Positions 1,356 to 58,753 of a stretch of DNA of 64,000 nt are shown piece by piece (within the stretch, counting starts at the first letter, position 1; each line of letters opens with the position of its first letter). This stretch comes from Nitrospirota bacterium. GTDB lineage: Bacteria; Nitrospirota; Thermodesulfovibrionia; UBA6902. The stretch lies in contig JACRHD010000018.1 in the NCBI GenBank assembly GCA_016234115.1, positions 20,724-84,723 of the forward strand, written 5' to 3'. A program made the translations under genes and the position numbers. The notes beneath the pieces were generated by a model, which was given only the letters and a program-made list of their open reading frames with translations, was not told the DNA's origin and searched no databases.

Positions 1356-1440
1356 GTAGTAAGTAGTTAGTAGTTAAGGGGTCCGCTTAGAGAAACTTTC
1401 CCTCCCCTTAACTACTAACTACCTAACTACGTAACTACTA
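1356..1440. repeat. Heptamer-array inverted repeat (TAGTTAG/TAGTAAG arm, CTAACTA arm)
   Basis: gtagtaagtagttagtagttaagggg ... ccccttaactactaactacctaactacgtaactacta, between ricT stop and metG ATG. Confidence 0.9.
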
Positions 1441-1446
1441 ATTTAA

Positions 1447-3516
1447 ATGGAACAAAGACCGGCAAATAAATTTTATATCACCACTCCCATCTACTACGTC
1501 AACGACGTCCCGCACATCGGGCATGCCTACACGACCGTTGCCGCCGACATCCTTTCGCGTTACAACAGATTAAGGGGGAAAGAGGTGTTTTTCCTGACCG
1601 GGACGGATGAGCACGGCCAGAAGGTCGAGAAGGCCGCGCAGGGAAGGGGACTTTCCCCCAAAGAGCATGCCGACCGGATGGTTGAGAATTTCAAGGCCCT
1701 CTGGAGAAAACTGAATATCTCAAATGACGCCTTCATCCGCACTACCGATCCGGAACATATCAAGACTGTGCAGGGACTCATACAGATTCTCTGGGACAAC
1801 GGGGAGATAGAAAAGAGGCAGTACGCCGGATGGTATTGCACCCCTGATGAGCGGTTCTGGACAGAGAAAGCCCTGGTCGGGGGGAACTGCCCTGATTGCG
1901 GACGGCCTGTTGAGCAGATACAGGAGGAGAACTATTTCTTCCTGATGTCGAAGTACCAGGTCAGGCTCATTAAATATATTGAAGACAACCATTCGTACAT
2001 CCTTCCGGACACGCGCAGGAACGAGGTGCTGGGATTTCTAAAGAACAACACCCTTGGAGACCTCTGCATATCGAGGCCGAAGGCGAGACTCGCATGGGGG
2101 ATTCCCTTTCCTTTTGACGAGGCCTTTGTGACTTATGTCTGGTTTGACGCGCTGGTGAACTATTTTTCCGCAACACGCTACCTTGCCCCGCAAAAAGGAG
2201 AGGGTCAGGGGTCAGGGGTCAAGGGTCAGGAAGAACCACTTAACTCGTCACTCGTCACTCGTCACTTGTCACTTGATTGGTGGCCCGCGGACCATCATCT
2301 TGTGGGAAAAGACATCCTGACCACTCACGCCGTCTACTGGTCTACAATGCTCATGGCGCTGAAGTTCCCCCTCCCTCAAAATATCTTTGCCCACGGCTGG
2401 TGGACCGTTGAAGGGAAGAAGATGTCAAAGTCTTTAGGCAATGTTGTGGACCCGAATGAAATGGTCGAAAAGTACGGGGCCGACGCCTTCAGGTATTTCC
2501 TCTTCAGGGAAGTGCCGTTCGGTTTAGACGGTAATTTCTCCGAAGAGGCCTTGGTGAACCGGATCAATACCGACCTCGCCAACGACCTCGGGAATTTGCT
2601 GAGCCGTACATTGACGATGATTGAAAAATACAGAAACGGCAAAATTCCTGCACCGGTAGACAGTAAAGACCGTGATGGACTGGAAAAGAGAATTAAGGCA
2701 TGGTTCGCTGCTGATTCAACAACTTCGATTTACAGGAGTTATGATGAATTCTTGAGACAACTGCAATTTAATAATGCACTCGCGCAGTTATGGAAAATTA
2801 TTGGTGAATTAAATGAATACATCGCTTCCTCAGAGCCGTGGAAAGTAAAAGATGAGGAGATGCTTTCCAATATACTTTTTACTCTTGCCGAATCACTTCG
2901 GCTTATTGCGGCTTATATTTATCCTTTCATGCCCTCCGCGGCTAATGCCGTTTGGGAACAACTCGGTATAAGGAAAGAAATAGGAGACATCAAGTTGGAT
3001 GACATTGCGAAGTGGGGTGGCCTGGCGCCCGAAACGAAAATAGAAAAAGGAAAACCGCTTTTTCCAAGGATAGATTTGAAAAAGGAAACATCTGTTGAAA
3101 AAATCCCCCTTGCTCCCCCTTTGACAAAGGGGTATTTAAAGGGTTCCCCCCCGTTGAAAAAGGGGGGTGAGGGGGGATTTTTTGATACAGACAATCTTAT
3201 CGCCATAGAAGACTTTGCAAAGGTGCAACTGAAAATAGGTAAAGTCCTTCAGGCGGAGCGTGTGCCCAAGTCGAACAAACTCATCAAACTTCAGGTCGAT
3301 ACCGGCGAGACCAGACAGGTGGTCGCGGGGATCGGGCAGGTGTATGCGCCTGAAGCTTTGATCGGCAAGAGTATCGTTGTCTTGACGAATTTAAAACCCG
3401 CAAAGCTCATGGGAGTCGAGTCGCAGGGCATGCTCCTTGCGGCAACGGACAGCGAAGGGGCGCTGTCGATTCTTGTTCCGGAGAAGGATGTGAAAGAAGG
3501 GGCGAAGATAAAATAG
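1447..3516 (+). CDS. metG: Methionine--tRNA ligase with C-terminal tRNA-binding (Trbp111-like) domain; carries two repeat-derived inserts
   Basis: PHIGH and KMSKS motifs, Zn knuckle CPDC, C-terminal LKPAKLMGVESQGMLLAA. Confidence 0.98.
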   Translation: MEQRPANKFYITTPIYYVNDVPHIGHAYTTVAADILSRYNRLRGKEVFFLTGTDEHGQKVEKAAQGRGLSPKEHADRMVENFKALWRKLNISNDAFIRTTDPEHIKTVQGLIQILWDNGEIEKRQYAGWYCTPDERFWTEKALVGGNCPDCGRPVEQIQEENYFFLMSKYQVRLIKYIEDNHSYILPDTRRNEVLGFLKNNTLGDLCISRPKARLAWGIPFPFDEAFVTYVWFDALVNYFSATRYLAPQKGEGQGSGVKGQEEPLNSSLVTRHLSLDWWPADHHLVGKDILTTHAVYWSTMLMALKFPLPQNIFAHGWWTVEGKKMSKSLGNVVDPNEMVEKYGADAFRYFLFREVPFGLDGNFSEEALVNRINTDLANDLGNLLSRTLTMIEKYRNGKIPAPVDSKDRDGLEKRIKAWFAADSTTSIYRSYDEFLRQLQFNNALAQLWKIIGELNEYIASSEPWKVKDEEMLSNILFTLAESLRLIAAYIYPFMPSAANAVWEQLGIRKEIGDIKLDDIAKWGGLAPETKIEKGKPLFPRIDLKKETSVEKIPLAPPLTKGYLKGSPPLKKGGEGGFFDTDNLIAIEDFAKVQLKIGKVLQAERVPKSNKLIKLQVDTGETRQVVAGIGQVYAPEALIGKSIVVLTNLKPAKLMGVESQGMLLAATDSEGALSILVPEKDVKEGAKIK
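2201..2275. repeat. In-frame heptamer arrays within metG (RGGGTCA x4, then ACTCGTC/ACTTGTC x4)
   Basis: Encodes EGQGSGVKGQEEPLNSSLVTRHLSL between YFSATRYL and WWPADHHLVGKDI. Confidence 0.9.
3100..3182. repeat. Double-hairpin CCCC..GGGG palindrome, in frame in the metG linker
   Basis: aaatcccc-[cccctttgacaaagggg]-[ccccccgttgaaaaagggggg]-ggggattt. Same architecture at 47474-47553; related copies at 54981-55050, 17881-17910 and 5611-5635. Confidence 0.85.
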
Positions 3517-3533
3517 AACAGGGCGTTGGCTTT

Positions 3534-3604
3534 GTAGCGTTGGGGTTTATCCCCGACGTTTATACCCAATAAGGATCGCCCCCAGTAAATGAGGGCGCTA
3601 CTAC
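3534..3604. repeat. REPIN-like doublet of GTAG-type REP hairpins
   Basis: GTAGcgttggggtttatccccgacg ... cgcccccagtaaatgagggcgctaCTAC: two hairpins with terminal GTAG/CTAC. Confidence 0.65.
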
Positions 3605-3620
3605 AAAAAAGGAAATTAGA

Positions 3621-4067
3621 ATGTCTGCGAAAGTTATCTCCATCAACATAAGCGACAAAAAAGGCGTGAGGAAGAAGGCCGTTGAGACGGCGCTGTTGAG
3701 GGAGAATTACGGGATTGAAAACGACGCGCACGCCTCCGAGACATGGCACAGGCAGGTGAGCCTCCTTGCTCTTGAAAGCATTGACAAGATGCGGGCAATG
3801 GGGCTGAAAGTCGGCCCCGGAGATTTCGCTGAGAATATTACTACTGAAGGCATTGATCTCGTAGTCCTTCCGGTGGGCACTAAAATGACTATCGGTGCGA
3901 AAGTAGAAGCGGAGGTCAGCCAGATCGGCAAGGTATGTCATACGCGCTGTGCTATTTATCATCAGGCAGGCGATTGCGTAATGCCGAAAGAAGGGATCTT
4001 CGTCAAGGTCCTCAAAGGCGGGACGATAAAAGCAGGAGACGAGATAAAAGTAGTTGGTAGCAAGTAG
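3621..4067 (+). CDS. MOSC domain-containing protein
   Basis: GIENDAHA, RQVSLL, PGDFAENITT, QIGKVCH, CVMPKEGIFVKVLKGG. Confidence 0.9.
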   Translation: MSAKVISINISDKKGVRKKAVETALLRENYGIENDAHASETWHRQVSLLALESIDKMRAMGLKVGPGDFAENITTEGIDLVVLPVGTKMTIGAKVEAEVSQIGKVCHTRCAIYHQAGDCVMPKEGIFVKVLKGGTIKAGDEIKVVGSK

Positions 4068-4142
4068 TTAGTAGCTAAGGGAAGGAGGCTTATCCAGTCT
4101 TATTTTTCCCCCCTAACTACTAACTACTTGCTACTAACTACT
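4050..4142. repeat. Heptamer-array inverted repeat (TAGTTGG/TAGCAAG/TAGTTAG) overlapping the MOSC stop codon
   Basis: gtagttggtagcaagtagttagtagctaaggg ... ccctaactactaactacttgctactaactac. Confidence 0.9.
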
Positions 4143-4642: not shown

Positions 4643-4713
4643 AGTTAAGAGTTTAGAGTTTGGAGTTTAGTAACGACTTTTTCCAGACTCTTAACTCTAT
4701 ACTCCAAACTCTG
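4642..4713. repeat. Heptamer-array inverted repeat (GAGTTTA/GAGTTTG)
   Basis: aagttaagagtttagagtttggagtttag ... agactcttaactctatactccaaactct. Confidence 0.85.
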
Positions 4714-6816: not shown

Positions 6817-6911
6817 ATAGTTCTCCTTTCTTAAAAATGTTTATTTAATTGTTTCTTTTCTGATTTTTTTTTTACTAATGAGGTCATAATTAAAGACACA
6901 TGAATTGGTCC

Positions 6912-7052: not shown

Positions 7053-7098
7053 AACTAATATGTCGTTAGTTATGAGCTCCATAGTCGATGACAACCAG

Positions 7099-7131
7099 TA
7101 TCTTGAATTTTCAATCTTAAATTTAAAATTC
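7099..7131. repeat. Degenerate heptamer half-array (AAATTTA/AAATTCA-like) at the ftsA stop
   Basis: tcttgaattttcaatcttaaatttaaaattc. Confidence 0.55.
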
Positions 7132-10286: not shown

Positions 10287-10325
10287 AATTTCAAATCTCA
10301 AATTTGAAATTTGAAATTTTAAATT
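10287..10325. repeat. Heptamer palindrome (AAATTTC/AAATCTC) at the murB stop
   Basis: aatttcaaatctcaaa|tttgaaatttgaaatt. Confidence 0.75.
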
Positions 10326-11248
10326 TTCCCGATAATCTTTATCTCCGGCTCAAGGACCACACCGCTGTGTTGCCCGACCTTTTCCTTTACTTTCTCCATG
10401 AGCGCCACAAAGTCCCTGCACGTCGCCGCGCCCTTATTGATAAAATAATTCGCGTGGAGCATGCTCACCTCGACTTCCCCGGTCCTCATGCCTTTGCACC
10501 CTGCCGCTTCTATCAGCCTCCCCGCCGCGTCCCCTTCCGGGTTTCTGAAGACGCATCCGGCGGAAGGCTCTCCCAACGGCTGTGTCTCTTTCTTCCTCCT
10601 CAGAAACTCTTTCATGCGCCCTGATATCGCGTCGGGGTTGTCTTTTGTCAGCGCGATATTGCCGCTGAGGATCACAAGATCAGCCGGAAGATTTGAGCTC
10701 CGGTATGAAAATTTCAGTTCATCCTTCTTCAGTATTGAAAGCTCTCCCTTCATATTCATTACCGCGAGGGACACAAGCAGGTCTTTCAGCTCCGTTCCGA
10801 AGGAACCGGCGTTCATATATACGGCCCCGCCGAAATATCCGGGGATGCCCGCAAGCGCCTCCATGCCCGAGCAGCCGTTTTTTTGCGCGAAGTTCAGAAG
10901 GCCCGAAAGCGGCACGCCTGCCCCTGCAAACAGGACCGCCTTCTGTTCATCGGCCTCTCTGGTAAATTCAATGCTCCTGAAGGCCTTCAGCGATATTACG
11001 ACGCCTTCGATGCCGCCATCTCCGGCAAGGACGTTCGTCCCCGCGCCGATGACCTGCACAGGCACATTCTCTCTGCCAGCGGCAAGCAGCGCGTATTTCA
11101 GGGACACAGGGTCTTCGGGAAACAGCATTATCTCCGCAGGCCCGCCTATCCTCAAGGACGTATGCGCCGAGAGGGGCTCGTCGTACCTTATCTCACCCCT
11201 GAATGAAAGCTTGTCGAATATCTCTCTTATAGTCATGCAATATTTCAT
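10319..11248 (-). CDS. murB: UDP-N-acetylenolpyruvoylglucosamine reductase
   Basis: HTSLRIGGPA, GAGTNVL, MNAGSFG, PSAGCVFRNP, LEPEIKIIG. Confidence 0.96.
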   Translation of the reverse strand: MKYCMTIREIFDKLSFRGEIRYDEPLSAHTSLRIGGPAEIMLFPEDPVSLKYALLAAGRENVPVQVIGAGTNVLAGDGGIEGVVISLKAFRSIEFTREADEQKAVLFAGAGVPLSGLLNFAQKNGCSGMEALAGIPGYFGGAVYMNAGSFGTELKDLLVSLAVMNMKGELSILKKDELKFSYRSSNLPADLVILSGNIALTKDNPDAISGRMKEFLRRKKETQPLGEPSAGCVFRNPEGDAAGRLIEAAGCKGMRTGEVEVSMLHANYFINKGAATCRDFVALMEKVKEKVGQHSGVVLEPEIKIIGKI

Positions 11249-11253
11249 TGGTC

Positions 11254-11318: not shown

Positions 11319-11319
11319 G

Positions 11320-12774
11320 CTATTTTTCATTTTGAATCTTTGAATCTTGAATTCTGAATTTTAAATATTCCTCCCCTATCTTCCACACATCGCCCGCCCC
11401 TAAAGTCAACAGCATGTCCCCTTCTCTGAGCTCACCACCGAGATAGGGCAGGATGTCGTCCCTGTCCTTTATATATTCAATATCCATACTTGTCTTTTTG
11501 ATCCCGTTGAACAGGGCCTCCGAGCTGATCCCCTCTATCGGCTGCTCCCCGGCAGCATAAATATCCATCAGCACCACCTTGTCCGCGTCGGCAAAGGCGT
11601 AGAAGAAATCAGTGAGAAGGTCCCTGGTCCTCGTATACCTGTGAGGCTGAAAAACAACTACCAGTCTGGGGTCTGGAGTTCGGAGTTTGGAGTTTTCCTT
11701 TTCTAAACTCCGGACTCCCGGCTCCGGACTCTGCCTTATCGCGTCTTTCGCTGCTTTAAGAGTAGCCATGATCTCCGCGGGATGATGCCCGTAATCATCC
11801 ACCACCCTGACGCCGGAGACGACACCTTTCATCTCGAAACGCCTCTGGACCCCGCTGAAATTCCTCAAGGCCTCCCGCACGTCTTCAGTGTCCATTTTCA
11901 GCTCATTGGCCACAGCGATAGCGGCGAGGCAGTTGCATACGTTATGGGCGCCAAGAAGCGGGATTTCAAAAGCGCCGATGGATTTTCCGTTGAGCGCCGC
12001 CTCGAATTTTGTACTGAATCCGTCCGTCATGACATCCCTTGCAACAAGATCGAGCCGCTCGCTCAGTCCGTAGGTAATAAACCTGCGCGTGACCTTCGGC
12101 AGAAGCTCTTTTATGTGTTCATTGTCACCGTTGAGAATTGAAAGCCCGTAAAACGGTATCTTGTTTATAAATGAAAGGAAGGCGTTTTTTATTTCATCAA
12201 TGGTCCTGAAATAGTCCATATGCTCCCTGTCGACGTTTGTTACGACCGCGATTGTGGGCGAGAGTTTCAAAAAGGAACCGTCGCTCTCATCCGCTTCCGC
12301 CACCAGGAATTCGCCCTGACCGAGTTTCGCGTTGCTGCCGATACCTTTCAGCTTACCCCCGATCACAACAGTCGGATCGAACCCGCCTCCGGCAAGGACG
12401 CTCGCTACCAGCGAAGTGGTCGTAGTCTTGCCGTGAGCGCCGGCAATGAGCACGCCGTACTTCATCCGCGCAAGCTCCGCTAACATCTCGGCCCTCGGGA
12501 TTACGGGAATGGACAGTTTACGCGCGGCCTCGACTTCGGGGTTATAAGGAGAGACAGCCGACGAAGTCACGACCACGTCGGCGTCTTTTATATTCTCCGC
12601 CGTGTGTCCGATACTGATGTTAAGGCCCATCTCCTTCAGCCTGATTGTAGTCTCCGACTCTTTCAGGTCCGAACCGGAAACCTCGTAACCGAGATTATGA
12701 AGGACCTCGGCAATGCCGCTCATCCCGACGCCGCCTATCCCGATAAAATGCACTTTCTCAAAATGTTTGTACAT
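11320..12774 (-). CDS. murC: UDP-N-acetylmuramate--L-alanine ligase, with internal and C-terminal repeat-derived inserts
   Basis: HFIGIGGVGMSG, GAHGKTTTT, EADESDGSF, DDYGHHP, FQPHRYTRT. Confidence 0.98.
   Translation of the reverse strand: MYKHFEKVHFIGIGGVGMSGIAEVLHNLGYEVSGSDLKESETTIRLKEMGLNISIGHTAENIKDADVVVTSSAVSPYNPEVEAARKLSIPVIPRAEMLAELARMKYGVLIAGAHGKTTTTSLVASVLAGGGFDPTVVIGGKLKGIGSNAKLGQGEFLVAEADESDGSFLKLSPTIAVVTNVDREHMDYFRTIDEIKNAFLSFINKIPFYGLSILNGDNEHIKELLPKVTRRFITYGLSERLDLVARDVMTDGFSTKFEAALNGKSIGAFEIPLLGAHNVCNCLAAIAVANELKMDTEDVREALRNFSGVQRRFEMKGVVSGVRVVDDYGHHPAEIMATLKAAKDAIRQSPEPGVRSLEKENSKLRTPDPRLVVVFQPHRYTRTRDLLTDFFYAFADADKVVLMDIYAAGEQPIEGISSEALFNGIKKTSMDIEYIKDRDDILPYLGGELREGDMLLTLGAGDVWKIGEEYLKFRIQDSKIQNEK
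11330..11365. repeat. Heptamer half-array (RATTCAA) forming the MurC C-terminus FRIQDSKIQNEK
   Basis: ttttgaatctttgaatcttgaattctgaattttaaa. Confidence 0.75.
11668..11733. repeat. In-frame heptamer inverted repeat within murC (GGAGTTY / RRACTCC)
   Basis: Encodes QSPEPGVRSLEKENSKLRTPDP just before RLVVVFQPHR. Confidence 0.9.
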
Positions 12775-12778
12775 GTCT

Positions 12779-13960
12779 TTATGAGGGTCCGGGGTCCGGG
12801 GTCCAGGGTCCGGTTTCCCCTGACCCTTGCCCCTTGACCCTTGACCCCTCTATCCTATATTCCGTCTTTTTTTTTAATAGTCCCATCATAAGCTCAACAA
12901 TCTTCCCCGCTGCGTCCACATTGCCGAGAGATTTGCTGGCGCGCTCTATCGCAGCTATGGCGTCGGGGTCCTCAAGAAGATATTTCACGATATCAGCGAG
13001 GGTCTTGCCGTTGAGGTCCCTTTCGAGTATCATCTGCGCTGCCCCGGCGTCCCACAGTTTTCTCGCGTTGATTTCCTGGTGATTGGCCGCGGCAAAGGGA
13101 AACGGGACCAGTATCGCGGCCTTTCCGCACGCCGTAAGCTCGGCAAGGGTAGTTGCCCCGGCGCGTGAGATAATCAGGTCCGCAGCCGCGTAGGCGTCGG
13201 CCATATCATAAGCAAACGGAATGACCGTTCCCCTGAATTCCCGGTACCGGTAGGCCTCCCTGACAGCGTCAAGCTCTCTCTCTCCCGTCTGATGCAGAAA
13301 CTGTATACGGTCCCTGAAAGGCTCGAGGTACGCCAGGGCCTCGCTGACGGCCTTATTGATACTGCTTGAACCCAGGCTGCCGCCGAATACAAATATGGTA
13401 AAGAGGTCCCTGTCGAGGCTGAATATTTCGCGTCCCCTTTCCCGGTCTCCGGTCAATATCTCCGTCCTGACGGGATTGCCGGTAAGAAATGTCTTTTCAG
13501 GAGGAAAGAACTCTATACTTTCATGATACGTCACAGCCACGGTGTCGACGAACTTCCCTAAAATCCTGTTGGCAAGCCCGGGGAGCGTATTCTGCTCATG
13601 AATTATTGTGAGGATACCCATCATCGAAGCGCGTAAAACAAAGGGGCCGGAACTGTAACCGCCCACGCCCAATACGAGGTCCGGCCGGAACTCCTTCAGT
13701 ATCCTGCCTGAGTCTTTCAGCGACAGCGGGACAGTAAAAAGCGATTTTGCGGTATGGACGATGTCTTTCCCGACGAGTCCTTCAGACCTGATGAAGCGGA
13801 TTTCGTATCCTTCTTTGGGAATTATCTTCGCCTCCATCCCCTTCGCGGTGCCGACAAACGTGATCTTCGCCCCCGCAACCGCCTTCCCGAATTCCCGCGC
13901 CACGGCGATCGCCGGGAAGATATGACCGCCTGTTCCGCCTCCTGCAATTAAAATATTCAT
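12779..13960 (-). CDS. murG: Undecaprenyldiphospho-muramoylpentapeptide beta-N-acetylglucosaminyltransferase
   Basis: AGGGTGGHIFP, HEQN, GNPVR, GGSLG, ISRAGATT. Confidence 0.98.
   Translation of the reverse strand: MNILIAGGGTGGHIFPAIAVAREFGKAVAGAKITFVGTAKGMEAKIIPKEGYEIRFIRSEGLVGKDIVHTAKSLFTVPLSLKDSGRILKEFRPDLVLGVGGYSSGPFVLRASMMGILTIIHEQNTLPGLANRILGKFVDTVAVTYHESIEFFPPEKTFLTGNPVRTEILTGDRERGREIFSLDRDLFTIFVFGGSLGSSSINKAVSEALAYLEPFRDRIQFLHQTGERELDAVREAYRYREFRGTVIPFAYDMADAYAAADLIISRAGATTLAELTACGKAAILVPFPFAAANHQEINARKLWDAGAAQMILERDLNGKTLADIVKYLLEDPDAIAAIERASKSLGNVDAAGKIVELMMGLLKKKTEYRIEGSRVKGQGSGETGPWTPDPGPS
12784..12866. repeat. Heptamer inverted repeat forming the MurG C-terminal tail (GGGTCAA / GGACCCY)
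   Basis: Encodes TEYRIEGSRVKGQGSGETGPWTPDPGPS-stop. Confidence 0.9.
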
Positions 13961-15135: not shown

Positions 15136-15200
15136 GTAAGGGCGACCCGGCGGGTCGCCCCTACGCTAAACTCTTAACTCTTGACTCTTGACTCTTGAAC
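15136..15200. repeat. GTAG-type REP hairpin with adjoining GAGTCAA heptamer arm overlapping the murD stop
   Basis: Minus strand: gagtcaa gagtcaa gagttaa gagttta gc GTAGGGGCGACCCGCCGGGTCGCCCTTAC. Confidence 0.85.
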
Positions 15201-16700
15201 CAGCTTCACCGCTTCCTTGAATTTCCTGCCCCTGTCTTCGAAATCCTTAAACATATCGAAGCTCGCGCACCCTGGCGACAGCAGTACGACATCTCCGGGA
15301 GACGCCTTTGCCATAGAAAGGTCAACCGCCGCCTGAAGGTCCCCTGCAATGAGGGTCTCCGTTACGCCTCCCAATGCCTCTTCAATCTTGTCTTTTGCCT
15401 TGCCGATTAAAACCAGGGCCTTCACTTTCCGCCTGACCAGGTCCCTCAGGACCGAGAAATCGCTCCCCTTGTCAAGCCCTCCCATAATTAAAATTACATC
15501 ATCAAGCCCCTCCAATGACTTAAACACAGCGCCGATGTTTGTCCCTTTGGAATCGTTAATGAACCTGACGCCTCCGACCTCGCCGGCAAATTCGAGCCTG
15601 TGTTCGAGACCCGGAAAACTCTTCAATACGTTTGCAATAGCGTCCGGGGGACATCCCGCTGAAAGGGCAACCAGGGCGGCCGCCATAGCGTTTTCGATAT
15701 TGTGAACACCCTGGATTTTTATCTCATTCTGAGATATAAGTGGGAAGTGAGAAGTGGGAAGTTGGAAGTGGGACGAATTGCAATAAATCATTCCGTCTTT
15801 CAAATAAACGCCCTCGACTTCTTTCATGCGACTGAAATAAAGTATTTTGGGTAATTTTTTACTTCTGACTTTCAACTTCTCAGTCCTCACTTTTTCTAAT
15901 ACATCATCAGCATTAAGGACCAGAAAATCATCGTGAGTCTGATTTTCAAAGATCCTCGCCTTGGCCTCGATGTACTCTTCCATGTTTTCATATCTGTCAA
16001 GATGGTCGGGCGTAATGTTGAGAACAGCCGCGATCTTCGGCCTGAATTCGTTAATTGTCTCGAGCTGGAAACTGGATATCTCGGCAACAATATAATCAAG
16101 AGGCAAGGGACGTGGACTTTCCCCTGACCCTTGACCCATGACCCTTGCCCCTGCCTTTAATATCTCCTCAGACAAGGCAATTCCTATGTTCCCTCCCAAC
16201 AGCGTACCGAACCCCGCCTCTTTCAGCATGAGGTCAACAAGCATGGTGGTTGTCGATTTCCCATTGGTGCCGGTAATGCCTATGAAGAAGGGGCAAGGGG
16301 CAAGGGGCAAGGGGCCGGGAGATCCATGACCCTTGACCCATGCCCCTTGACCCATTTGTTTAATCGCCTGATACGCGAGTTCGAGTTCGCCGATCACCGG
16401 GATGCCCTTTATTCTCGCGCGTTCGGGTACATGGGATTTTAGAGGCACTCCGGGGCTTATTATTATCATGTCGGCAGAGTCGATAATTTCATCCGGATCA
16501 TCACCGGTTAATATATTTACAGACGGCAGCAGTCTCTTAATATGGGCTTCAAGCGCACTTCTTGATTTACTGTCGGTAATTGTGACTTCAGCGCCTAACG
16601 CGGAGAGAAGGTTTGCCGCGCCCGTACCGCTTCGCGCAAGCCCGACTACTACGATGTTTTTACCTTTAAATGTCATTTCCTGTTTTTCCATTTGTATCAT
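15174..16700 (-). CDS. murD: UDP-N-acetylmuramoyl-L-alanine--D-glutamate ligase, with five repeat-derived segments
   Basis: VVGLARSG, ITGTNGKSTT, EISSFQL, GLEHRLE, NDSKGTN, LSPGCASFD. Confidence 0.98.
   Translation of the reverse strand: MIQMEKQEMTFKGKNIVVVGLARSGTGAANLLSALGAEVTITDSKSRSALEAHIKRLLPSVNILTGDDPDEIIDSADMIIISPGVPLKSHVPERARIKGIPVIGELELAYQAIKQMGQGAWVKGHGSPGPLPLAPCPFFIGITGTNGKSTTTMLVDLMLKEAGFGTLLGGNIGIALSEEILKAGARVMGQGSGESPRPLPLDYIVAEISSFQLETINEFRPKIAAVLNITPDHLDRYENMEEYIEAKARIFENQTHDDFLVLNADDVLEKVRTEKLKVRSKKLPKILYFSRMKEVEGVYLKDGMIYCNSSHFQLPTSHFPLISQNEIKIQGVHNIENAMAAALVALSAGCPPDAIANVLKSFPGLEHRLEFAGEVGGVRFINDSKGTNIGAVFKSLEGLDDVILIMGGLDKGSDFSVLRDLVRRKVKALVLIGKAKDKIEEALGGVTETLIAGDLQAAVDLSMAKASPGDVVLLSPGCASFDMFKDFEDRGRKFKEAVKLVQESRVKS
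15738..15895. repeat. Pair of five-heptamer arms in murD (AAGTGGG-type 15738-15772; ACTTCTC-type 15861-15895)
   Basis: Encode SHFQLPTSHFPL and KVRTEKLKVRSK. Confidence 0.8.
16098..16156. repeat. In-frame heptamer inverted repeat in murD
   Basis: Encodes GARVMGQGSGESPRPLPL before DYIVAEISSFQL. Confidence 0.85.
16290..16354. repeat. In-frame heptamer inverted repeat in murD
   Basis: Encodes MGQGAWVKGHGSPGPLPLAPCP immediately before FFIGITGTNGKST. Confidence 0.9.
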
Positions 16701-19328: not shown

Positions 19329-19410
19329 AATTCAAAATTCAACATTCAAGATTCAAAACCGGACATTCAGACAAGCTTAATCTTGAATGTTGAATTTTGA
19401 ATCTTGAATT
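19329..19410. repeat. Near-perfect heptamer inverted repeat (AATTCAA/CATTCAA/GATTCAA) spanning the murE stop to the murF ATG
   Basis: aattcaaaattcaacattcaagattcaa ... aatcttgaatgttgaattttgaatcttgaatt; gives MurE the tail IQDSKFNIQD. Confidence 0.92.
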
Positions 19411-22811: not shown

Positions 22812-22873
22812 CGGGGTCAAGGGAAGAAGTTAAGTGATTTTACCCTTGACCCTTGCCCCCGGACCCTTGACCC
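22812..22873. repeat. Heptamer inverted repeat (GGGTCAA) after the ftsL stop
   Basis: ggggtcaaggg ... cccttgacccttgcccccggacccttgaccc. Confidence 0.8.
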
Positions 22874-22875
22874 TT

Positions 22876-23205
22876 TTATTTCAACGACGCCTTATACGGT
22901 CCTGCCGCAGGCGTTCTCTTGACGTAAAATACATTTTCCCTCACAGGGAGGGTCATCCCGAGCCGGTCCACCGCGACCCTTTCTATCTTCTCAGTCGAGT
23001 AAAGACTTGCCCTCTGCGCAACCACCATCTTCCTTTCGCGCACATGCTCCACCCGGAGCCTGTCAAGCTCCCCCAACTCATATTCAAGATTTATCACCGC
23101 GGCCTTCAGCCATACAATCGCAAAAAGGCAGAATATGAAATATAACGGGAAACAAAACATCAGCAGGCCCTTTTTCCTGCTGTTTTTCACTCTCGGCCTG
23201 CTCAT
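22876..23205 (-). CDS. ftsL: Cell division protein FtsL-like
   Basis: Basic N-terminus, TM, coiled coil, ERVAVDRLGM; between rsmH and ftsI. Confidence 0.75.
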   Translation of the reverse strand: MSRPRVKNSRKKGLLMFCFPLYFIFCLFAIVWLKAAVINLEYELGELDRLRVEHVRERKMVVAQRASLYSTEKIERVAVDRLGMTLPVRENVFYVKRTPAAGPYKASLK

Positions 23206-24651: not shown

Positions 24652-24735
24652 AGCGGTCAGCGATCAGCAATCAGCAATCAGTCGGAATCGACCGAGGATC
24701 TTTTGCTGAGAGCTGATTGCTGAACGCCGGCAGCT
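24652..24735. repeat. Heptamer inverted repeat (AGCRATC / TGCTGAN) upstream of xerD
   Basis: agcggtcagcgatcagcaatcagcaatcag ... tgctgagagctgattgctgaacg. Confidence 0.85.
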
Positions 24736-46100: not shown

Positions 46101-46661
46101 ATGAATAAAAGGATCCTGAGTCTCATTTATTTTCTGATTACGGTTGTAATCCTTGTTGCGGCCATAAAGATCATCAACTACCTGCCGATGGTTATCCAGG
46201 CAGGCACCATAAGGGAATACCATAGTATCGAAGAAGTCAGGTCAAAGCTGAATATAAAAGATATCTATATCCCAACTTATTTCCCCCAGGGACTCGTCTG
46301 GCCTCCATCCCTGGTCCTTGCCCAGGATAAACCCTTTACAGCGGTGATAACAGAATTCAAAAAAGCAGGTAAGGAAGCCCCTGCCCTGATCTTGTCGCAG
46401 AGCGCGTCCGCAACTTTCAGGACAGATGAGAAAATCAGGCTGCGGGGAATCAAGGAAAAAATCAGCTATCCTCTTAAGGGAAGAAACATGATGCTGGAGG
46501 CCGGCGTGTGCGACAACGAGGAGCCCTGCAGCCGGATAACATGGGCTGAGGGAAGATACACGATTACCGTCACTGCAAAGTCGGAGCCTCCGGACCTCCT
46601 GAAGATCGCGGAGAGCATGGTCCACCGACTTCCGACACGCGGCAGGCATGAAAAAAATTAG
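46101..46661 (+). CDS. Hypothetical protein with N-terminal membrane anchor
   Basis: RBS ggagaa, single TM, co-oriented with the peptidase. Confidence 0.7.
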   Translation: MNKRILSLIYFLITVVILVAAIKIINYLPMVIQAGTIREYHSIEEVRSKLNIKDIYIPTYFPQGLVWPPSLVLAQDKPFTAVITEFKKAGKEAPALILSQSASATFRTDEKIRLRGIKEKISYPLKGRNMMLEAGVCDNEEPCSRITWAEGRYTITVTAKSEPPDLLKIAESMVHRLPTRGRHEKN

Positions 46662-46737
46662 TGACAAGTGCCGAGTAACAAGTGACATGTGCTAAAAGAA
46701 CTACTCGTCACTTGTTACCTGTTACTCGTTACTTCAC
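46660..46737. repeat. Heptamer inverted repeat (RAGTRAC / GTYACTY) between convergent genes
   Basis: agtgacaagtgccgagtaacaagtgaca ... actcgtcacttgttacctgttactcgttact. Confidence 0.88.
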
Positions 46738-47460
46738 TTATCGCTCCATTTTCATTTTAAGCGCGATGAGGGCGAGGATTCCCGTCATAAACAATATACC
46801 GCCGGCAAGGGCCCAGACTGCGCCGGGCTCCCTGCTGATCTGAAGGAGGACCGCCTCCGGGTATGCCCGCAGGTCCTTCACATTGATATTAAACCCCATC
46901 TGCGTGGAAGGACTGTTCGGCGCAATCATATCGGTCAGAAACAATCTGCCGTCTTTCAGGTATTCAATGCCGACCTTCCAGTCTGTGATATATCCATAGG
47001 GGTCCGACCGGATGTTTATTTCTTTCACCCTCAGGACCGCGTCATCGGAAATCCTGAGCATATCGCCTTCCGCCGCAACTGCCGTTGCCTGATAACTTCC
47101 GGCTGCGCTCAGCAGATGAGCGAGCAGGATAAAAAGGAACCCGATATGGATTATCTGCGGAGAGATCAGGAGCAGCCATTGCGTGACCTTGCGCTTTTTT
47201 ACGAGCGATTCAATACTGCAAAAAAGCGTGTTGACGGCAAGGACGGACAGGAGCCCGATCGACCCCCACAGCCACCACGTAATATTCCCCGGCTGTTTCT
47301 GCAGCCACTCAAGCATCGGGACAGAATGGATACTCTGGAATTCATTCTGCCCCGGCATGATGACCGCGCCCGCAAGCATCAGAGCCAGCATGAAGCCGAG
47401 CAGCCACAGGGTTGTGCGGAGGGACAGGAAAAAGTTTGTAATGTTTTTTATAATTAACAT
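46738..47460 (-). CDS. resB: ResB/Ccs1-like cytochrome c biogenesis protein (system II)
   Basis: FFLSLRTTL, NTLFCS, IIHIGFL, SPNSP, SREPG; adjacent to ccsA. Confidence 0.7.
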   Translation of the reverse strand: MLIIKNITNFFLSLRTTLWLLGFMLALMLAGAVIMPGQNEFQSIHSVPMLEWLQKQPGNITWWLWGSIGLLSVLAVNTLFCSIESLVKKRKVTQWLLLISPQIIHIGFLFILLAHLLSAAGSYQATAVAAEGDMLRISDDAVLRVKEINIRSDPYGYITDWKVGIEYLKDGRLFLTDMIAPNSPSTQMGFNINVKDLRAYPEAVLLQISREPGAVWALAGGILFMTGILALIALKMKMER

Positions 47461-52099: not shown

Positions 52100-52804
52100 T
52101 TAAGTCGCCTGCAATCTCTCGACTTCTTTTATGATTTCTTCAATAACTTCAACGTTGTATATCTTTTTCTTTTTTCCTGATTTGACAGAGTAAATGAAAA
52201 AGACTTGTCCACCGAACTTCTTCCTGAACTTCTCGTGATTGACTTCGTGCATCTTGATCCATTGATACTGGTTCAATGACTGACCGGAAGATATTGGTTT
52301 AATTTGAAGACCGATATATTTATCATTTACTTGAATGAAGAAATCAACGTTGCAGGATCTGTCCCATTCATCAGGTGCGGGTTGGATCTTGACGCCGAGA
52401 ACAGACTCAAGCTGCCCATATATTGTATCAATCTCAGATTTGTATCCTTCGTAGGTTCTATTTAGTACAAGATTGTATGCATAATCAATGCATTCTTCTT
52501 CTTCGATAGCGTCCAGTTCACTTTGAACAACTTCTGCTAATTTCACATAAAGCTTTTGCCCCAAATCCCTGATGTATTCTCTCGTAATCTTCGCGCCGTT
52601 TTTCTTTTTCTGCTCAGCGTTTTTAAAATAAAAATCATCCCAATCTTTAAAAGATGTCGGCGCGCACTTTCTTATCAATTCTGAAGTAGGACCAACGCTA
52701 TGGGCCTTATTCAAGCCCCACCGGTTCATTCCGTAGTTGAGTAATGTCTCCCTTTTGAATTTCAGATTTTTGCCCTCGCTGCCTGATATCCATTCTTTTG
52801 ACAT
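52100..52804 (-). CDS. MjaI-family type II restriction endonuclease
   Basis: SVGPTSELIR, RTYEGY, APDEWDRSCNVDFFI, GLQIKP (PD-(D/E)xK variant). Confidence 0.78.
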   Translation of the reverse strand: MSKEWISGSEGKNLKFKRETLLNYGMNRWGLNKAHSVGPTSELIRKCAPTSFKDWDDFYFKNAEQKKKNGAKITREYIRDLGQKLYVKLAEVVQSELDAIEEEECIDYAYNLVLNRTYEGYKSEIDTIYGQLESVLGVKIQPAPDEWDRSCNVDFFIQVNDKYIGLQIKPISSGQSLNQYQWIKMHEVNHEKFRKKFGGQVFFIYSVKSGKKKKIYNVEVIEEIIKEVERLQAT

Positions 52805-52806: not shown

Positions 52807-54081
52807 TTATCCCCTCAGTTCCAGAAATTTATCTTTGTATTTAAAATTCAGAGAAGTATTTACTTCAGTCAGCCCGCTTTTAATAAGATGCGCGTTAATG
52901 AATGTTTTATTCTGCAGATAAAGGTAGCACAACAGATTGCCGCAATCATCATATTTGAAAGTATCAAATTTCAGGAATACCTTTTCGCCTTTCAACTTCG
53001 TCTCTAAAAACTTAAGCGCCTGACCGTTTATCTCCTTCTTCTCCTTAATACCTATTAACCTGACTTTCAGATCGTTATTAAGGATTAAAACTTCAGGGCT
53101 GACTATTTCCTTTACTGAATAGTAAGTTTCTCTTTGATGAGATGAACCGTTGTCTATCTTCGATCCGAATTGCAATTTTTTAGGATCGATCTTCTTGTCA
53201 AACTTAACAGGGTCTTTGAACACATAGGGCAGTTCGCTAATTCTTGTTCTGTAATCGCTTTCTTTCTTTTGTTGAATGATTATCGTAAAGTCTTTTTCAT
53301 TCCTGCGTATCTTTAGCTTTTCCTTAATAACGGGCAGGAACTCTTTATTGACTTCATAGCCGACGGAGTTTCTTCCAAGATTTCTTGCCGCAAGACACGT
53401 TGTCCCGCTTCCAAGAAATGGATCAAGCACTGTATCGCCGACAAAGCTGAACATCCTTATCAACCGCTTCGGCAGCTCTTCGGGAAACATTGCAAGGTGT
53501 TTGTCCTGTTTTTCACCGGCGAAATTCCAGTGACCGTAAAAATACTCATTCCATTCTTTTGTAGTAAGTTTGGATTTTTCTTTTATCTCCCTGCTTACCT
53601 TCGGCGGATCGCCAAGCTTCTTGAAGATTAGAATAAATTCGTAGTCCAACTTGATAATACCGTTCCGTGGGTAAGGAAAAGACCCCATGATCGTCGCGCC
53701 ACCTGTTGTATTACATGTTGTAACCTTTTGCCAGATAATCGCGCCCATGTAATCAAAGCCGATGGTTTCACAGAACTTGATGATCTCCTCTCTTATAGGG
53801 ATGATTTTGTACCTTCCGTAATAGACAGAGCGGGCAAATTGGTCGCCGATGTTTACGCATAAACGGCAGCCGTTATGGAGGACTCTGTAGCATTCGTTCC
53901 AGACAAGGTTCAGATTATTGATGTATTCCTCATAGGTATCATTGAAACCTATCTGGCTTCCGTTACCGTAGTCTTTTAATTGCCAGTAGGGAGGGGAGGT
54001 AATGATGAGATGAACGGATTCATCTTGAAGTTCGGTCATTTGCCGGCTATCGCCGATGGTGATGGTGGTGTTAAGATTCAT
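52807..54081 (-). CDS. N4-cytosine/N6-adenine DNA methyltransferase (beta class) with C-terminal thermonuclease-like domain
   Basis: TSPPY, HLAMFPEELP, DPFLGSGTT; C-terminal VRLIGI, DDCGNLLCYLY, INAHLIKSGL. Confidence 0.88.
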   Translation of the reverse strand: MNLNTTITIGDSRQMTELQDESVHLIITSPPYWQLKDYGNGSQIGFNDTYEEYINNLNLVWNECYRVLHNGCRLCVNIGDQFARSVYYGRYKIIPIREEIIKFCETIGFDYMGAIIWQKVTTCNTTGGATIMGSFPYPRNGIIKLDYEFILIFKKLGDPPKVSREIKEKSKLTTKEWNEYFYGHWNFAGEKQDKHLAMFPEELPKRLIRMFSFVGDTVLDPFLGSGTTCLAARNLGRNSVGYEVNKEFLPVIKEKLKIRRNEKDFTIIIQQKKESDYRTRISELPYVFKDPVKFDKKIDPKKLQFGSKIDNGSSHQRETYYSVKEIVSPEVLILNNDLKVRLIGIKEKKEINGQALKFLETKLKGEKVFLKFDTFKYDDCGNLLCYLYLQNKTFINAHLIKSGLTEVNTSLNFKYKDKFLELRG

Positions 54082-57509: not shown

Positions 57510-57602
57510 AATTCCTCCCTTAATGTAAAATGAAGGTTGTTAATTTATAAGATGTTTTTTAATAATGAATTGCCCTGTATTGACATGATTGGATATTTCA
57601 TA

Positions 57603-57648
57603 CCCCTTATTTAGAGGTTCGTGAAAAATTAAACCACAATATGTTGTA
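57603..57648. promoter_or_regulatory. Tandem NrdR boxes upstream of nrdJ
   Basis: CACAATATGTTGTA (57635-57648) and CCCCTTATTTAGAG (57603-57616), offset 32 bp. Confidence 0.75.
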
Positions 57649-57949
57649 TAGTGTCAAGCGAAAAATGCGTTTTTTACAACTCTTTGATTTTAATAAAAAT
57701 TTATTGTGGAAATCGGGTTGATGAAATGTGAATAGGACAGCGATGAATAAAATGGCCGAAACACCGCATGCGAATACCGGCGGGTTACAAATAATCTCCT
57801 TGCTTTGAAGATGTTTTTCAATTATGCCTCCCACAGTACGATATATTTGTGAATAATCCGGGTTCATTTCAGCTTCCCTTGTGTCAAGTTTTTTGTTCAG
57901 GTAAGATTATCATGCAGGATGTTTTCATATTAACTATGCGCGTAAAAAC

Positions 57950-58687
57950 ATGGACATAAACTCTCTCGGCAGCATAACATTCGACCTTAATTTTCTTACC
58001 GCCCTTGCCAGCATAGTGATAATCGACCTGATCCTGGCAGGGGACAACGCGGTGGTCATCGCAATGGCGGTCCGGTCTCTGCCTGCGGAGCAAAGGAAAA
58101 AGGGGATATTTTACGGGGCGGGCGCCGCTGTATTGCTGCGGGTGATGGCGACCTTTTTTGTGGCGCAGCTTCTGCAGATGAGTTTTATAAAATTAGCCGG
58201 CGGCATACTGATCACCTGGATAGCGGTAAAACTCTTTGTCGAGGGCGTGCCCGAAAATAATATAAAAAAAGAGGCCTCAACAATAGCGCAGGCAGTTAAG
58301 GTCATAGTCATCGCGGACATAACGATGGCCATCGACAACATGCTGGCAGTCGGAGGCGCCTCGCACGGCAACCTGTTTCTGCTCCTCTTTGGTCTGGGGT
58401 TAAGCATTCCCATGGTCGTATTTACGAGCAACCTGCTTTCCACGATGATGGACAAGTACCCTGTGATCATTTACATCGGCGCGGCCGTATTGGGCAAGGT
58501 CGGGGGGGAAATGATAATCACGGACCCTTTCGTCGTAAACATGTTTCAACCGGGCAAGGTGATAAAATACTCCACAGAGGCCGTCTTTGCAATCGGAGTC
58601 ATCTTTGCCGGGAAATATTATATGAAGTGGAAGGTGTCAAGGGAAGAGAGAGAGGAGCATGTTCATGAGAATAATAGTGAACAGTGA
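57950..58687 (+). CDS. TerC family (YjbE-type) membrane protein
   Basis: IDLILAGDNAVVIA, ADITMAIDNMLA, GLGLSIP. Confidence 0.92.
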   Translation: MDINSLGSITFDLNFLTALASIVIIDLILAGDNAVVIAMAVRSLPAEQRKKGIFYGAGAAVLLRVMATFFVAQLLQMSFIKLAGGILITWIAVKLFVEGVPENNIKKEASTIAQAVKVIVIADITMAIDNMLAVGGASHGNLFLLLFGLGLSIPMVVFTSNLLSTMMDKYPVIIYIGAAVLGKVGGEMIITDPFVVNMFQPGKVIKYSTEAVFAIGVIFAGKYYMKWKVSREEREEHVHENNSEQ

Positions 58688-58753
58688 ATAGAATTCGGAT
58701 GAATGAGGCTTTTGCCTGTTTACCGTTCACTATTCACTAACAACTATTCACTA
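58675..58753. repeat. Heptamer inverted repeat (YAGTGAA / TTCACTA) overlapping the terC stop
   Basis: tagtgaacagtgaatag ... cgttcactattcactaacaactattcacta. Confidence 0.85.

Follow-up and report, generated by a model that had tools for sequence, protein, structure and literature searches.

Tandem arrays of 7-nt units are scattered through a 64,000-nt stretch of DNA from a Nitrospirota bacterium (assembly GCA_016234115.1, contig JACRHD010000018.1, positions 20,724 to 84,723; hereafter the window), usually arranged as a purine-rich (R) arm followed by a pyrimidine-rich (Y) arm. An earlier reading of the window, made from its letters (the sequence-only reading), proposed that the unit sequence differs between loci while the period and the polarity are kept. 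We found that this holds both between loci and between species. We also found that most arms lie inside open reading frames (ORFs), a point that was absent from the earlier reading, and that relatives carry arrays at the same gene positions and in the same orientation, built from different units. The interpretation that we favor, tentatively and at a little less than an even chance, is that these are old array loci that are renewed in place by slippage and conversion and filtered by selection, as heptanucleotide microsatellites like the STRR sequences (short, repeated in tandem, and repetitive).

Tandem heptamer arrays in the window

Tandem Repeats Finder (TRF) returned 35 rows with a period of 7 or 14 in the window, and these merged into 30 arms at ~22 loci. 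Most of the loci lie within positions 1356–24735, with three at 35029–35640 and one each near 46700 and 58726 (Table 1), and many of the arrays also show a higher-order period, of 14 or 21 nt. A strict detector found nine near-perfect period-7 arrays in the window and none with periods of 5, 6, or 8–12, and it found no near-perfect period-7 array in 30 dinucleotide-preserving shuffles. Three tandem copies of the unit consensus described below (KTSARRR, with up to 3 mismatches) were matched 59 times, against an expectation of 8.7 ± 3.3 and a maximum of 21. When paired elements were folded, 10 of 12 were far more stable than their shuffles (z-scores of -2.5 to -8.8). The pair in metG at 2202–2273 does not stand out in this way (z -1.4), because its two arms are different, non-complementary heptamers. 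The elements at 1356–1438 and 4048–4142 have common arms and a common inner AAGGGG/CCCCTT stem.

The loci listed in the sequence-only reading are largely real: 22 of its 25 coordinates are clear arrays, and those at 7099 and 15861 are degenerate but real arms. The locus at 42132, which had been counted as a heptamer array, is instead an octamer-based element. It is an inverted repeat of ~8-nt units (CGCAAAGA ... CTTTGCG) at 42132–42230, between an ORF at 41583–42047 and a cytochrome c gene, and it may represent an octamer version of the heptamer elements (as in the octanucleotide class of Geobacter) or no more than a terminator.

We attach next to no probability to the idea that the arrays are assembly or binning artefacts or chance low-complexity sequence. 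Its one attraction is that short-read contigs end inside arrays, so that arrays do disturb assembly. An independent Logan contig is 100% identical to the window over 16745–20090, the hairpin at 19329–19409 included, and both of its ends fall within arrays; the arrays are therefore real, and they disrupt short-read assembly. In addition, ORFs remain intact through the arrays, the same sites are filled in dozens of independent metagenome-assembled genomes (MAGs) and metagenome contigs, and shuffled sequence yielded no arrays.

The genes of the window include the dcw cluster (mraZ to ftsZ), metG, a pil operon, aroC, aroK-aroB, nrdJ, and genes for multihaem cytochromes. The nearest MraY sequences are those of Nitrospirota/Thermodesulfovibrionia MAGs from groundwater and the subsurface, with identities of up to 89%, so the organism belongs with these and is not a cyanobacterium. 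We found no metagenome contigs of the same species (the best MraY match was 88% identical), and an exact-protein look-up for strain-level variants returned one short contig, with no match for two proteins. A BLAST search of plasmids with one hairpin returned murC homology only, and an Rfam scan of the window returned only a tRNA.

Arrays occupy inherited sites in relatives

For the lineage survey we used loci centred on mraY, 80 from genomes and 80 from metagenomes. Within the Thermodesulfovibrionia clade, most loci carry period-7 arrays at 0.2–1.3 per kb, and a few have few or none; arrays of the same kind are present, at 0.2–1.1 per kb, in ~40 related genomes, each of which holds dozens of unit types. 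Densities are ~0–0.14 per kb in Thermodesulfovibrio proper and ~0–0.2 per kb in Desulfuromonadales and Acidobacteriota outgroups. TRF rows with periods of 7, 14, and 8 number 418, 112, and 111 in the clade, against 44, 8, and 45 in the outgroups.

The arrays occupy a limited number of old sites that recur across the clade: operon junctions, C-terminal tails, and a few positions within MurC, MurD, MurE, Ddl, MetG, and AroC. Of 37 clade genomes, 20 have an array in the stretch of MurD from ELELAYQ to ITGTNGKST, just before the P-loop; neither Thermodesulfovibrio nor any outgroup has one there. The units at this site vary by species (AAGTCAG, CAGGGAT/CCTACCC, AAAGAGC, GGTCAGA, AAGCGGC, ACAGAAT, and TAAGAGT/CATCACC). 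Other recurrent sites, each filled in 6–18 genomes, number three in MurD, one in MurC, three in MurE, and one in Ddl. The MurC site orthologous to the element at 11663–11731 carries arrays in 13 of 33 clade genomes, and the second MurD insert site (16098–16152) in 16. The survey found no recurrent sites in FtsI, FtsA, or the interior of MurF. At orthologous sites the orientation is kept while the unit sequence differs between species.

One pair of MurD sites is split, with an R arm at the first site and a Y arm at the second. By TRF, the first site contains arrays in 18 clade genomes (R in 17 of these; the degenerate arm of the window was missed) and the second in 17 (Y in 16). As ~82–104 nt of conserved native coding sequence lie between the split arms in the clade, a single hairpin insertion cannot be the source of the pair. 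Co-variation of the two split arms was considered and rejected: their complementarity is 0.68 within the same genome and 0.66 across genomes, and there is no excess because the units at these sites are conserved.

Polarity, unit consensus, and copy number

Among 47 adjacent array pairs in the clade, 29 are R→Y, 10 are R→n (n, neutral), 3 are n→Y, 2 are n–n, 2 are R–R, and 1 is Y–Y, and none is reversed (Y→R). The statement in the sequence-only reading that the R arm stands 5′ of the Y arm is thus upheld. In 19 of the 47 pairs the arms are at least 80% complementary, compared with 8% of mismatched controls, and so true hairpins are common (~40%) and not universal.

Alignment of 226 units over rotation and strand gave a purine-strand consensus of K-T-S-A-R-R-R, with an information content of 4.85 bits, compared with 3.5–3.7 bits for letter-permuted control units. 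The earlier formula that period and polarity, not sequence, are conserved therefore stands in its first half, and in its second half has to make room for this loose consensus. K-T-S-A-R-R-R is compatible with MTYCTGA of Geobacter (as its reverse complement) and with the Nostoc unit TTCAAAA. We set aside the idea that the arrays are outward-facing -35 boxes, as TTGAC occurs in only ~9% of units (our own estimate from a position weight matrix). Copy number is low and sharply limited: 88 near-perfect arrays have three copies, 68 have four, 11 have five, and ~0 have more.

We also observed an exact 21-mer, (TCAGAAG)x3, in 52 stretches of viral contigs from IMG/VR (L162–L213) whose G+C content ranges from 0.35 to 0.70. 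Period 7 is dominant among the tandem repeats of these stretches (206 rows), many of which contain several different heptamer arrays, at up to 1–4 per kb. The phenomenon consequently extends well beyond the clade and into phage or prophage DNA. Of 29 adjacent pairs in the viral contigs, 11 are R→Y, 18 are mixed or neutral, and none is Y→R.

Arrays inside genes and at gene junctions

Approximately 19 of the 30 arms in the window are inside ORFs, in frame and stop-free. They lie in MetG, MurD (three internal sites and the C terminus), MurE, MurC (one internal site and the C-terminal tail), the MurG tail, and AroC (three). MurD, MetG, AroC, and MurE match full-length family models across the inserts. 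Against solved structures, the MurD arrays align as inserts of 22, 15, and ~10 residues, and the AroC arrays as inserts of 12 and 6 residues and one loop replacement of equal length. Peptides such as GQGSGVKGQ and GSPGPLPLAPCP are encoded by the arrays in MurD, MetG, and AroC. Insert lengths in genes preserve the reading frame, and across the clade the sense strand of intragenic units is depleted of stop triplets (0.23, against 0.43 expected). The end-to-end matches to family models, the depletion of stops, and the frame-keeping lengths argue, at the level of sequence, that intragenic arrays are translated rather than bypassed.

We considered whether junction arrays act as three-frame stop modules at gene ends and rejected this, because the frequency of sense-strand stop triplets is 0.47, against 0.50 expected. 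Antisense stop triplets are in excess in junction arrays, which reflects the TCA core of the units. At operon junctions in the window, the R arm runs over the stop codon of the upstream gene, lies next to it, or codes for the C-terminal tail of the upstream protein. In seven of eight junction or intergenic hairpins, the Y arm ends 0–11 nt before the next ATG, and in six of these seven there is no Shine-Dalgarno (SD) sequence between the two. A hairpin that bridges an SD sequence to the ATG looks suggestive at metG and at the gene that starts at 4151; the result of folding with flanking sequence was mixed, and we put this forward only weakly. The arrays at operon junctions have probably been co-opted.

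Change and stability of arrays

No unit-number difference was found between assemblies that are 99.97%–99.99% identical or in one pair that is 98.2% identical, nor did we find any filled/empty polymorphism at ≥98% identity. Point substitutions in the 98.2% pair are ~2-fold denser in arrays than elsewhere, at an approximately neutral rate. We rejected the hypothesis that the arrays are hypermutable contingency loci, given the absence of copy-number change at 98.2%–99.99% identity, the merely ~2-fold elevation of substitutions, and the in-frame position of arrays in housekeeping genes.

Larger changes appear at greater distances. L035 and L036, which are 95% identical, differ by only two indels of at least 12 nt, and both are at arrays. 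In this pair, one purine arm shows a wholesale change of unit type with its partner arm unchanged. With L027 as the outgroup, a further site shows the loss of an arm in L035; in L036 it has gained a Y arm that seems to be the neighboring R arm copied in inverted orientation and amplified. For the one difference of 69 nt at 95% identity, a loss is the preferred reading. L028 and L029 (~91% identical) differ by many changes, including a gain of 21 nt (three units) inside an ORF and replacement of whole elements, and concerted changes of units are seen in the arrays of relatives.

Units at distant loci are identical in 3.0% of pairs within a genome and 1.1% of pairs between genomes, the spacers of elements of the same type are unrelated, and we found no target-site duplications and no consistent duplications of flanking sequence. 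These results agree with the view of the sequence-only reading that the arrays are not copies of one master element. Among the ~40 ORFs of the window that were scanned, there is no transposase, RAYT gene, or reverse transcriptase, and only a XerC/D-like recombinase and a restriction-modification pair were found.

Origin of the arrays

On the interpretation that we favor, replication slippage and intra-array conversion in blocks of one to three units would renew the arrays in place, a form of concerted evolution, and occasional further changes would come from deletions, from invasion by other mini-palindromes, and from events in which an arm is copied, inverted, to the opposite side. Selection would act only as a filter, so that intragenic arrays would be tolerated, translated inserts rich in G/Q/K/S or in P/L. 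Junction hairpins would loop out and bring the stop codon (and the SD sequence) near the next start, thereby keeping translational coupling and perhaps mRNA stability. Neither a master copy nor a local transposase would be involved. The inheritance of sites across the clade, the turnover of units, and the satellite-like nature of the changes do not fit copies of a master element, nor do they fit contingency loci. The dedicated generating mechanism that the sequence-only reading suggested is not required, as the old loci, the 14- and 21-nt blocks, the gain of three units within an ORF, and the nearly neutral rates all fit slippage, conversion, and selection.

Several observations weigh against this interpretation. 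Slippage does not explain the preference for a period of 7 over 5, 6, 8, or 9, which holds even between genes, nor the lack of any Y→R pair among 47 clade and 29 viral-contig pairs. It also leaves unexplained the retention of a T-S-A core that is common to Geobacter and Nostoc units, and the plateau at three to four copies with a collapse after five. Unit-number polymorphism was not seen between near-identical assemblies, although consensus assemblies would hide such variants, and some arms are wholly different at a divergence of only 5%. The role in translational coupling that it gives to junction hairpins is deduced from their geometry. Four of these features (period 7, dyad polarity, the T-S-A core, and the ceiling at ~5 units) leave room for a trans-acting factor.

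We consider it distinctly unlikely that the elements are non-autonomous mobile hairpins, akin to REPINs or to miniature inverted-repeat transposable elements (MITEs), that are mobilized in trans by a transposase (for example, of the RAYT/Y1 type), with arms that diversify quickly by slippage after insertion and permissive sites that are repeatedly re-invaded. Rickettsia palindromic elements also lie in frame within genes. The hairpin-like architecture and the arms and inner stem common to 1356–1438 and 4048–4142 would suit such an origin, as would the ~2.7-fold excess of identical units within a genome, the three lone arms that adjoin a REP-like GTAG and GC-rich hairpin, the presence of one heptamer unit in 52 viral contigs, and the entry of mobile mini-palindromes into the same sites in relatives (C6/G6, with seven new copies in L029 relative to L028). 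However, the unit diversity within a genome is huge and the within-genome excess of common units weak, elements of the same type have unrelated spacers, and target-site duplications and a transposase in the window are lacking. Moreover, a mobile origin akin to that of REPINs or MITEs is weakened by the split MurD pair, which flanks ~82 nt of native coding sequence in many genomes, and by the clade-wide inheritance of site and orientation with no filled/empty polymorphism at ≥98% identity; it could still have had a part in the initial spread. It is very unlikely that a dedicated repeat-writing enzyme (of a reverse transcriptase/telomerase-like, primase-polymerase, or HUH nickase type, acting by template-directed or slippage-prone synthesis) extends each flank of a hairpin or break by ~4 heptamer units. 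Such an enzyme would account for the preference for period 7, the copy-number ceiling, the core motif that crosses phyla, and the replacement of a whole arm at 95% identity, and the strict dyad polarity would correspond to a purine-rich nascent strand approaching the center from both sides. Set against this, the window contains no candidate enzyme, arrays are stable at 98%–99.99% identity, and the appearance of the 14- and 21-nt blocks, and of the gradual concerted changes, is that of a satellite evolving in the ordinary way. As the units are not fixed, a single template for such an enzyme is excluded.

Alternatively, the arrays could be cis-regulatory sites at which a protein encoded in the lineage, either a binder of single-stranded nucleic acid with a footprint of ~7 nt per module or a nucleoid protein, reads ~4 consecutive KTSARRR units, so that selection keeps the period, polarity, core, and length, hairpins compete with binding, and intragenic copies are spill-over. 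We regard this as unlikely. Candidate readers would be proteins of the cold-shock/OB-fold type, ribosomal protein S1, or the nucleoid proteins IHF/HU; S1 and cold-shock proteins have been suggested to bind TAACTGA arrays (PMC4679880), and IHF/HU binding was proposed for paired sites in Geobacter (PMC2700814). The conserved core, the strand asymmetry, the conservation of orientation at each site, and the sharp length ceiling (4–5 units, ~28–35 nt) are as expected for binding sites. Y arms stand 0–11 nt from SD-less starts, as TAACTGA arrays do (PMC4679880), and heptamer repeats of Nostoc alter the expression of recF and recO reporters (bioRxiv 2022.06.06.494920). By contrast, a regulatory role is hard to see for the majority of arms, which are in housekeeping ORFs; the units are very diverse (~4.9 bits), ~60% of pairs make poor hairpins, and no candidate binding protein is indicated by the genes of the window. 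A wider proposal traces STRR, the Geobacter sites, TAACTGA repeats, the heptamer arrays of viral contigs, and the elements described here to a single unrecognized trans-acting system that works in a 7-nt register across phyla. The system would be a multi-module single-strand binder or a repeat writer, with ~4 units, a K-T-S-A-R-R-R core, and R→Y polarity around a dyad, and it would remodel essential enzymes; we would give this proposal, too, only a small probability. Renewal in place by slippage and conversion is the interpretation that we retain.

Relation to known repeats

STRR, reported by Mazel and colleagues in 1990, are said to be dispersed tandem heptanucleotides with several unit types per genome. 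One is reportedly found inside an RNase P RNA gene, where, in the account of Vioque from 1997, two arms lengthen a helix. The present elements resemble STRR in being dispersed tandem heptanucleotide arrays, of several unit types per genome, that also occur within functional genes. The hosts differ: STRR belong to (heterocystous) cyanobacteria, whereas the nearest relatives here are MAGs of Nitrospirota/Thermodesulfovibrionia. No tandem copy of CCCCAGT (STRR1), TTGGTCA (STRR2), or CAACAGT (STRR3), in any rotation or on either strand, is present in the window. To our knowledge, in-frame protein-coding copies and strict polarity are not described features of STRR. The sequence-only reading had set the cyanobacterial heptamers apart as a fixed-sequence family; this was mistaken, as the heptamer repeats there are not one fixed sequence either. 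The Rickettsia palindromic elements, reportedly described by Ogata and colleagues in 2000, are said to form defined families of 100–150 bp that lie in frame in conserved genes. Both they and the present elements are small palindromic DNAs in frame within conserved ORFs, translated as a tolerated extra peptide, but the present elements have no conserved sequence or defined families and are built of 7-nt tandem units.

The closest likeness to paired arms is in Geobacter metallireducens, in which sites of 4–5 tandem octa- or heptanucleotides are usually paired on opposite strands and were termed class 1–3 global regulator sites (Aklujkar et al., 2009; PMC2700814). One example has five copies of MTYCTGA between proB and proA, and another element, Gmet_H4, has four copies of the heptanucleotide GGGACCG and occurs at 49 intergenic and intragenic places (PMC2700814). 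The elements described here also have 4–5 tandem units, opposite-strand pairs, variable spacing, and positions both within and between genes. The class-3 unit MTYCTGA, when reverse-complemented, is compatible with the present consensus in its T-C-A-G-R-A-K form, and AAGTCAG arrays are common in relatives of the window; exact GGGACCG arrays are absent from the window. Each Geobacter class, however, has a consensus that is recognizable by BLAST and is present in tens of copies, whereas here there are dozens of unit types that cannot be aligned as one family. The Geobacter sites also belong to another phylum, and the paper does not describe polarity, conservation at orthologous sites, or in-frame translation (PMC2700814).

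Direct repeats of the heptamer TAACTGA occur in Beggiatoaceae, cyanobacteria, and some Bacteroidetes (MacGregor, 2015; PMC4679880). As in that system, arrays have 2–6 copies, pyrimidine-type arrays end a few nucleotides upstream of starts that mostly lack an SD sequence, and units are mixed with other heptamers (there, "related 7 bp sequences" and, in Microcystis, further heptamers). The TAACTAC arms before metG and the gene at 4151 are two bases from TAACTGA (GA to AC), and TAACTGA arrays themselves are absent from the window. The TAACTGA unit is fixed, nearly always in direct orientation (with one indirect case), and nearly always intergenic, whereas the present elements have variable units, inverted pairs, and mostly intragenic positions. 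In Nostoc, heptamer repeats near start codons affect reporter expression, as shown for recF and recO (bioRxiv 2022.06.06.494920).

REPINs are of fixed sequence, extragenic, and linked to RAYTs (Bertels and Rainey, 2011; PMC3116915). Like REP sequences and REPINs, the present elements are short, dyad-symmetric, hairpin-forming repeats dispersed in hundreds of copies, but their sequence is not fixed, there is no single conserved palindrome, and most copies are intragenic. They differ from MITEs in the lack of target-site duplications and of precise filled/empty sites at ≥98% identity. The present case differs from known heptamer repeats in its lineage, in the very large number of unit types that one genome holds, in a preponderance of copies that lie in frame within essential enzymes, in the documented polarity rule, and in the conservation of site and orientation between orthologs. 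The sequence-only reading recognized no described system that explains the arrays. That is right in so far as none of these papers explains the mechanism, but to claim an undescribed system would be too strong, given the precedents in Geobacter, TAACTGA repeats, and STRR.

Accompanying palindromes and other features of the window

Table 1. Heptamer elements and selected other features of the window (z, folding z-score against shuffles)
Position	Strand	Feature	Units and arms	z	Context
1356..1438	.	Hairpin	(GTAGTTA)x3, 32-nt spacer with inner AAGGGG/CCCCTT stem, (TAACTAC)x4	-6.3	Intergenic, PSP1-like gene/metG; Y arm ends 8 nt before metG ATG (1447), no SD between; AGGAGA 3 nt 5′ of R arm
2202..2273	+	In-frame MetG insert	(GGGTCAG)x4, 12 nt, (ACTCGTC)x4		Translation GEGQGSGVKGQEEPLNSSLVTRHLSL
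4048..4142	.	Hairpin	(AGTAGTT)-type arms	-8.8	Stop of upstream MOSC gene inside R arm; Y arm ends 8 nt before ATG 4151
4643..4712	.	Hairpin	(GAGTTTA)x4 / (AACTCTN)x4	-5.1	Starts directly after stop of 4151-4642 gene; ends 9 nt before ATG 4722
7094..7128	-	Degenerate R arm	TTCAAGA/TTGAAAA type		At and just downstream of ftsA end (stop 7130-7132); inside probably spurious 104-aa ORF; GTCATTCCCGC-type mini-element downstream, core at 7042
10287..10326	-	Array	(AAATTTC/AAATTTG)x5.7		Junction of murB stop and ddl start
11329..11366	-	R arm	(ATTCAAG/ATTCAGA)x5		MurC C-terminal tail KFRIQDSKIQNEK and stop; then GTCATTCCCGC-type mini-element
11663..11731	-	Hairpin in MurC	GGAGTTT/GGGGTCT-type arms	-3.3	Residues ~343-366
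12785..12849	-	Hairpin	(GGGTCAA/GGGGCAA)x4, AAAC, (CGGACCC)x4	-3.75	MurG C-terminal tail; stop 12779-12781, murC ATG 12774
15140..15198	-	R arm	(CAAGAGT)x4		MurD C-terminus and stop; then REP-like hairpin GTAGGGGCGACCCGCCGGGTCGCCC
15738..15895	-	Split pair in MurD	R arm 15856-15895 (AAGTGAG/AAGTCAG type); Y arm 15738-15773 (CCCACTT type)		~82 nt conserved native coding sequence between arms
16098..16152	-	MurD insert 2	GGGTCAA-type R arm, degenerate Y arm		15 aa, RVMGQGSGESPRPLP
16288..16355	-	MurD insert 1, hairpin	(ATGGGTC/AAGGGGC)x4.5 ... (CCCCTTG)x4	-4.8	22 aa, MGQGAWVKGHGSPGPLPLAPCP, just before P-loop
16705..16762	-	R arm	(AGAGTTT)x3		mraY-murD junction; then imperfect GTAGGGGCG-type hairpin
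19329..19409	-	Hairpin	R arm (ATTCAAG)x4	-7.95	murE-murF junction; R arm is MurE tail IQDSKFNIQD and stop; Y arm has 0-nt gap to murF ATG
20043..20097	-	In-frame MurE insert	(GGGGCAA)x4		Then REP-like hairpin GTAGGGGCGGGGTGACCCCGCCC; translation RGKGQGARSRGGVTPPV
22812..22878	-	Hairpin	R arm (GGGTCAA/GGGGCAA)x4, short Y arm	-2.5	Just after ftsL stop
24652..24735	.	Hairpin	(GGTCAGC/AATCAGC)x4 ... (GCTGATT)	-5.9	Divergent mraZ/xerC-like intergenic region; ends 11 nt before ATG 24747
24747..25622		XerC/D-like tyrosine recombinase			Runs divergently to mraZ; ATG lies 11 nt after a heptamer hairpin
28913..28984	-	tRNA gene			
35029..35057	+	Y-type array in AroC	(CCAATCC)x4		12-aa insert relative to Aquifex enzyme
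35258..35293	+	R-type array in AroC	(AAGGGGC)x5		Replaces equal-length loop, no residues added
35610..35640	+	R-type array in AroC	(AAGGGTC)x4		6-aa insert SRVRGQ
35964..37556		Fused shikimate kinase-dehydroquinate synthase gene aroK-aroB			
46660..46740	.	Hairpin	(AGTGACA)x4 ... (TCGTTAC/TTGTTAC)x4	-5.1	Between two convergent genes
52100..52804		MjaI-family endonuclease			Restriction-modification pair
52807..54081		N4/N6 DNA methylase			C-terminal SNase-like domain; restriction-modification pair
58675..58757	.	Hairpin	(ATAGTGA/ACAGTGA) ... (TTCACTA)x4	-5.8	Overlaps TerC stop; ends 10 nt before ATG 58768; SD present

Some arms had been described in the sequence-only reading as lone arms, and of these, three adjoin a GC-rich GTAGGGGCG...CGCCCCTAC hairpin. 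This REP-like element (GTAG, a GGGCG...CGCCC hairpin, and CTAC) stands directly 3′, on the coding strand, of the three purine arms, with copies at 15140–15160, 20043–20061, and ~16705–16745, and further copies in a MurD loop of L001, L003, L005, and L009. The copy inside the murE ORF is translated as RSRGGVTPPV. The REP-like element and the heptamer arm may form a composite.

Other palindromes keep company with the arrays. A fixed-sequence mini-palindrome, AATCCCCCC..CCCCCCTTTnnAAAGGGGGG..GGGGGGATT, with its C-rich arm first, occurs at 3146–3180 (in metG), 5611–5629, 17864–17908, and 47519–47550. L029 has seven extra copies of this AATCCCCCC-type palindrome relative to L028, some of them in MurD sites at which L028 has heptamer arrays, and it has the look of a MITE that is active and that inserts in frame in genes as well (giving peptides of the PPLxKGG type). 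Two copies of a MITE-like element, TGTCATTCCCGC..GCGGGAATCC ... GGATGCCCGATTAAG..GGGCATGAC, lie at ~6820–7090 in the ftsA-ftsZ gap and at ~11250–11320 in the murC-murB gap; in both cases the upstream gene has an (ATTCAAG)-type heptamer arm at its end, and the element lies downstream of this arm. An ORF of 104 aa (6831–7145) that runs across one of the two copies is probably spurious. A 27-nt palindrome, GCCTTCGACCCGAGCTCAGGCCGAAGG, interrupts a heptamer array at its center in both L028 (~11500) and L026 (11109–11135), at one and the same junction; it resembles the "small dispersed repeats" reported within heptamer repeats of Nostoc.

Octamers were also observed. An octamer array, (AGTCTCCG)x4-5, inside an ORF of L028 (~7633–7657) is 24 nt (three units) longer than in L029. 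The unit of this array is similar to TCTCCGTS, the class-2 repeat of Geobacter. Arrays with a period of 8, too, are enriched in the clade, at 111 rows compared with 45 in the outgroups. Elsewhere in the window, the restriction-modification pair adjoins a 313-aa ORF with no Pfam match in a stretch of low G+C content (52–56 kb, G+C 0.43), a region that is probably a horizontally acquired islet.

Implications

Reports of heptamer repeats go back decades for cyanobacteria and were followed by others for Geobacter, Beggiatoaceae, and Bacteroidetes, with no mechanism to account for them. The clade described here constitutes an unusually rich natural experiment, in which dozens of genomes have different units at the same gene positions, and it supplies rules that can be tested: period 7, an R→Y dyad, a T-S-A core, and a ceiling of ~4 units. 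It also indicates that heptamer repeats can persist, translated, in essential enzymes (MurD, MurE, MetG, and AroC). In practice, the arrays break short-read assemblies, inflate protein lengths, and create spurious low-complexity segments, and in Nitrospirota MAGs they are a potential source of error in gene calling and in homology scores. Should a dedicated factor prove to underlie the arrays, it would represent a new genome-structuring system.

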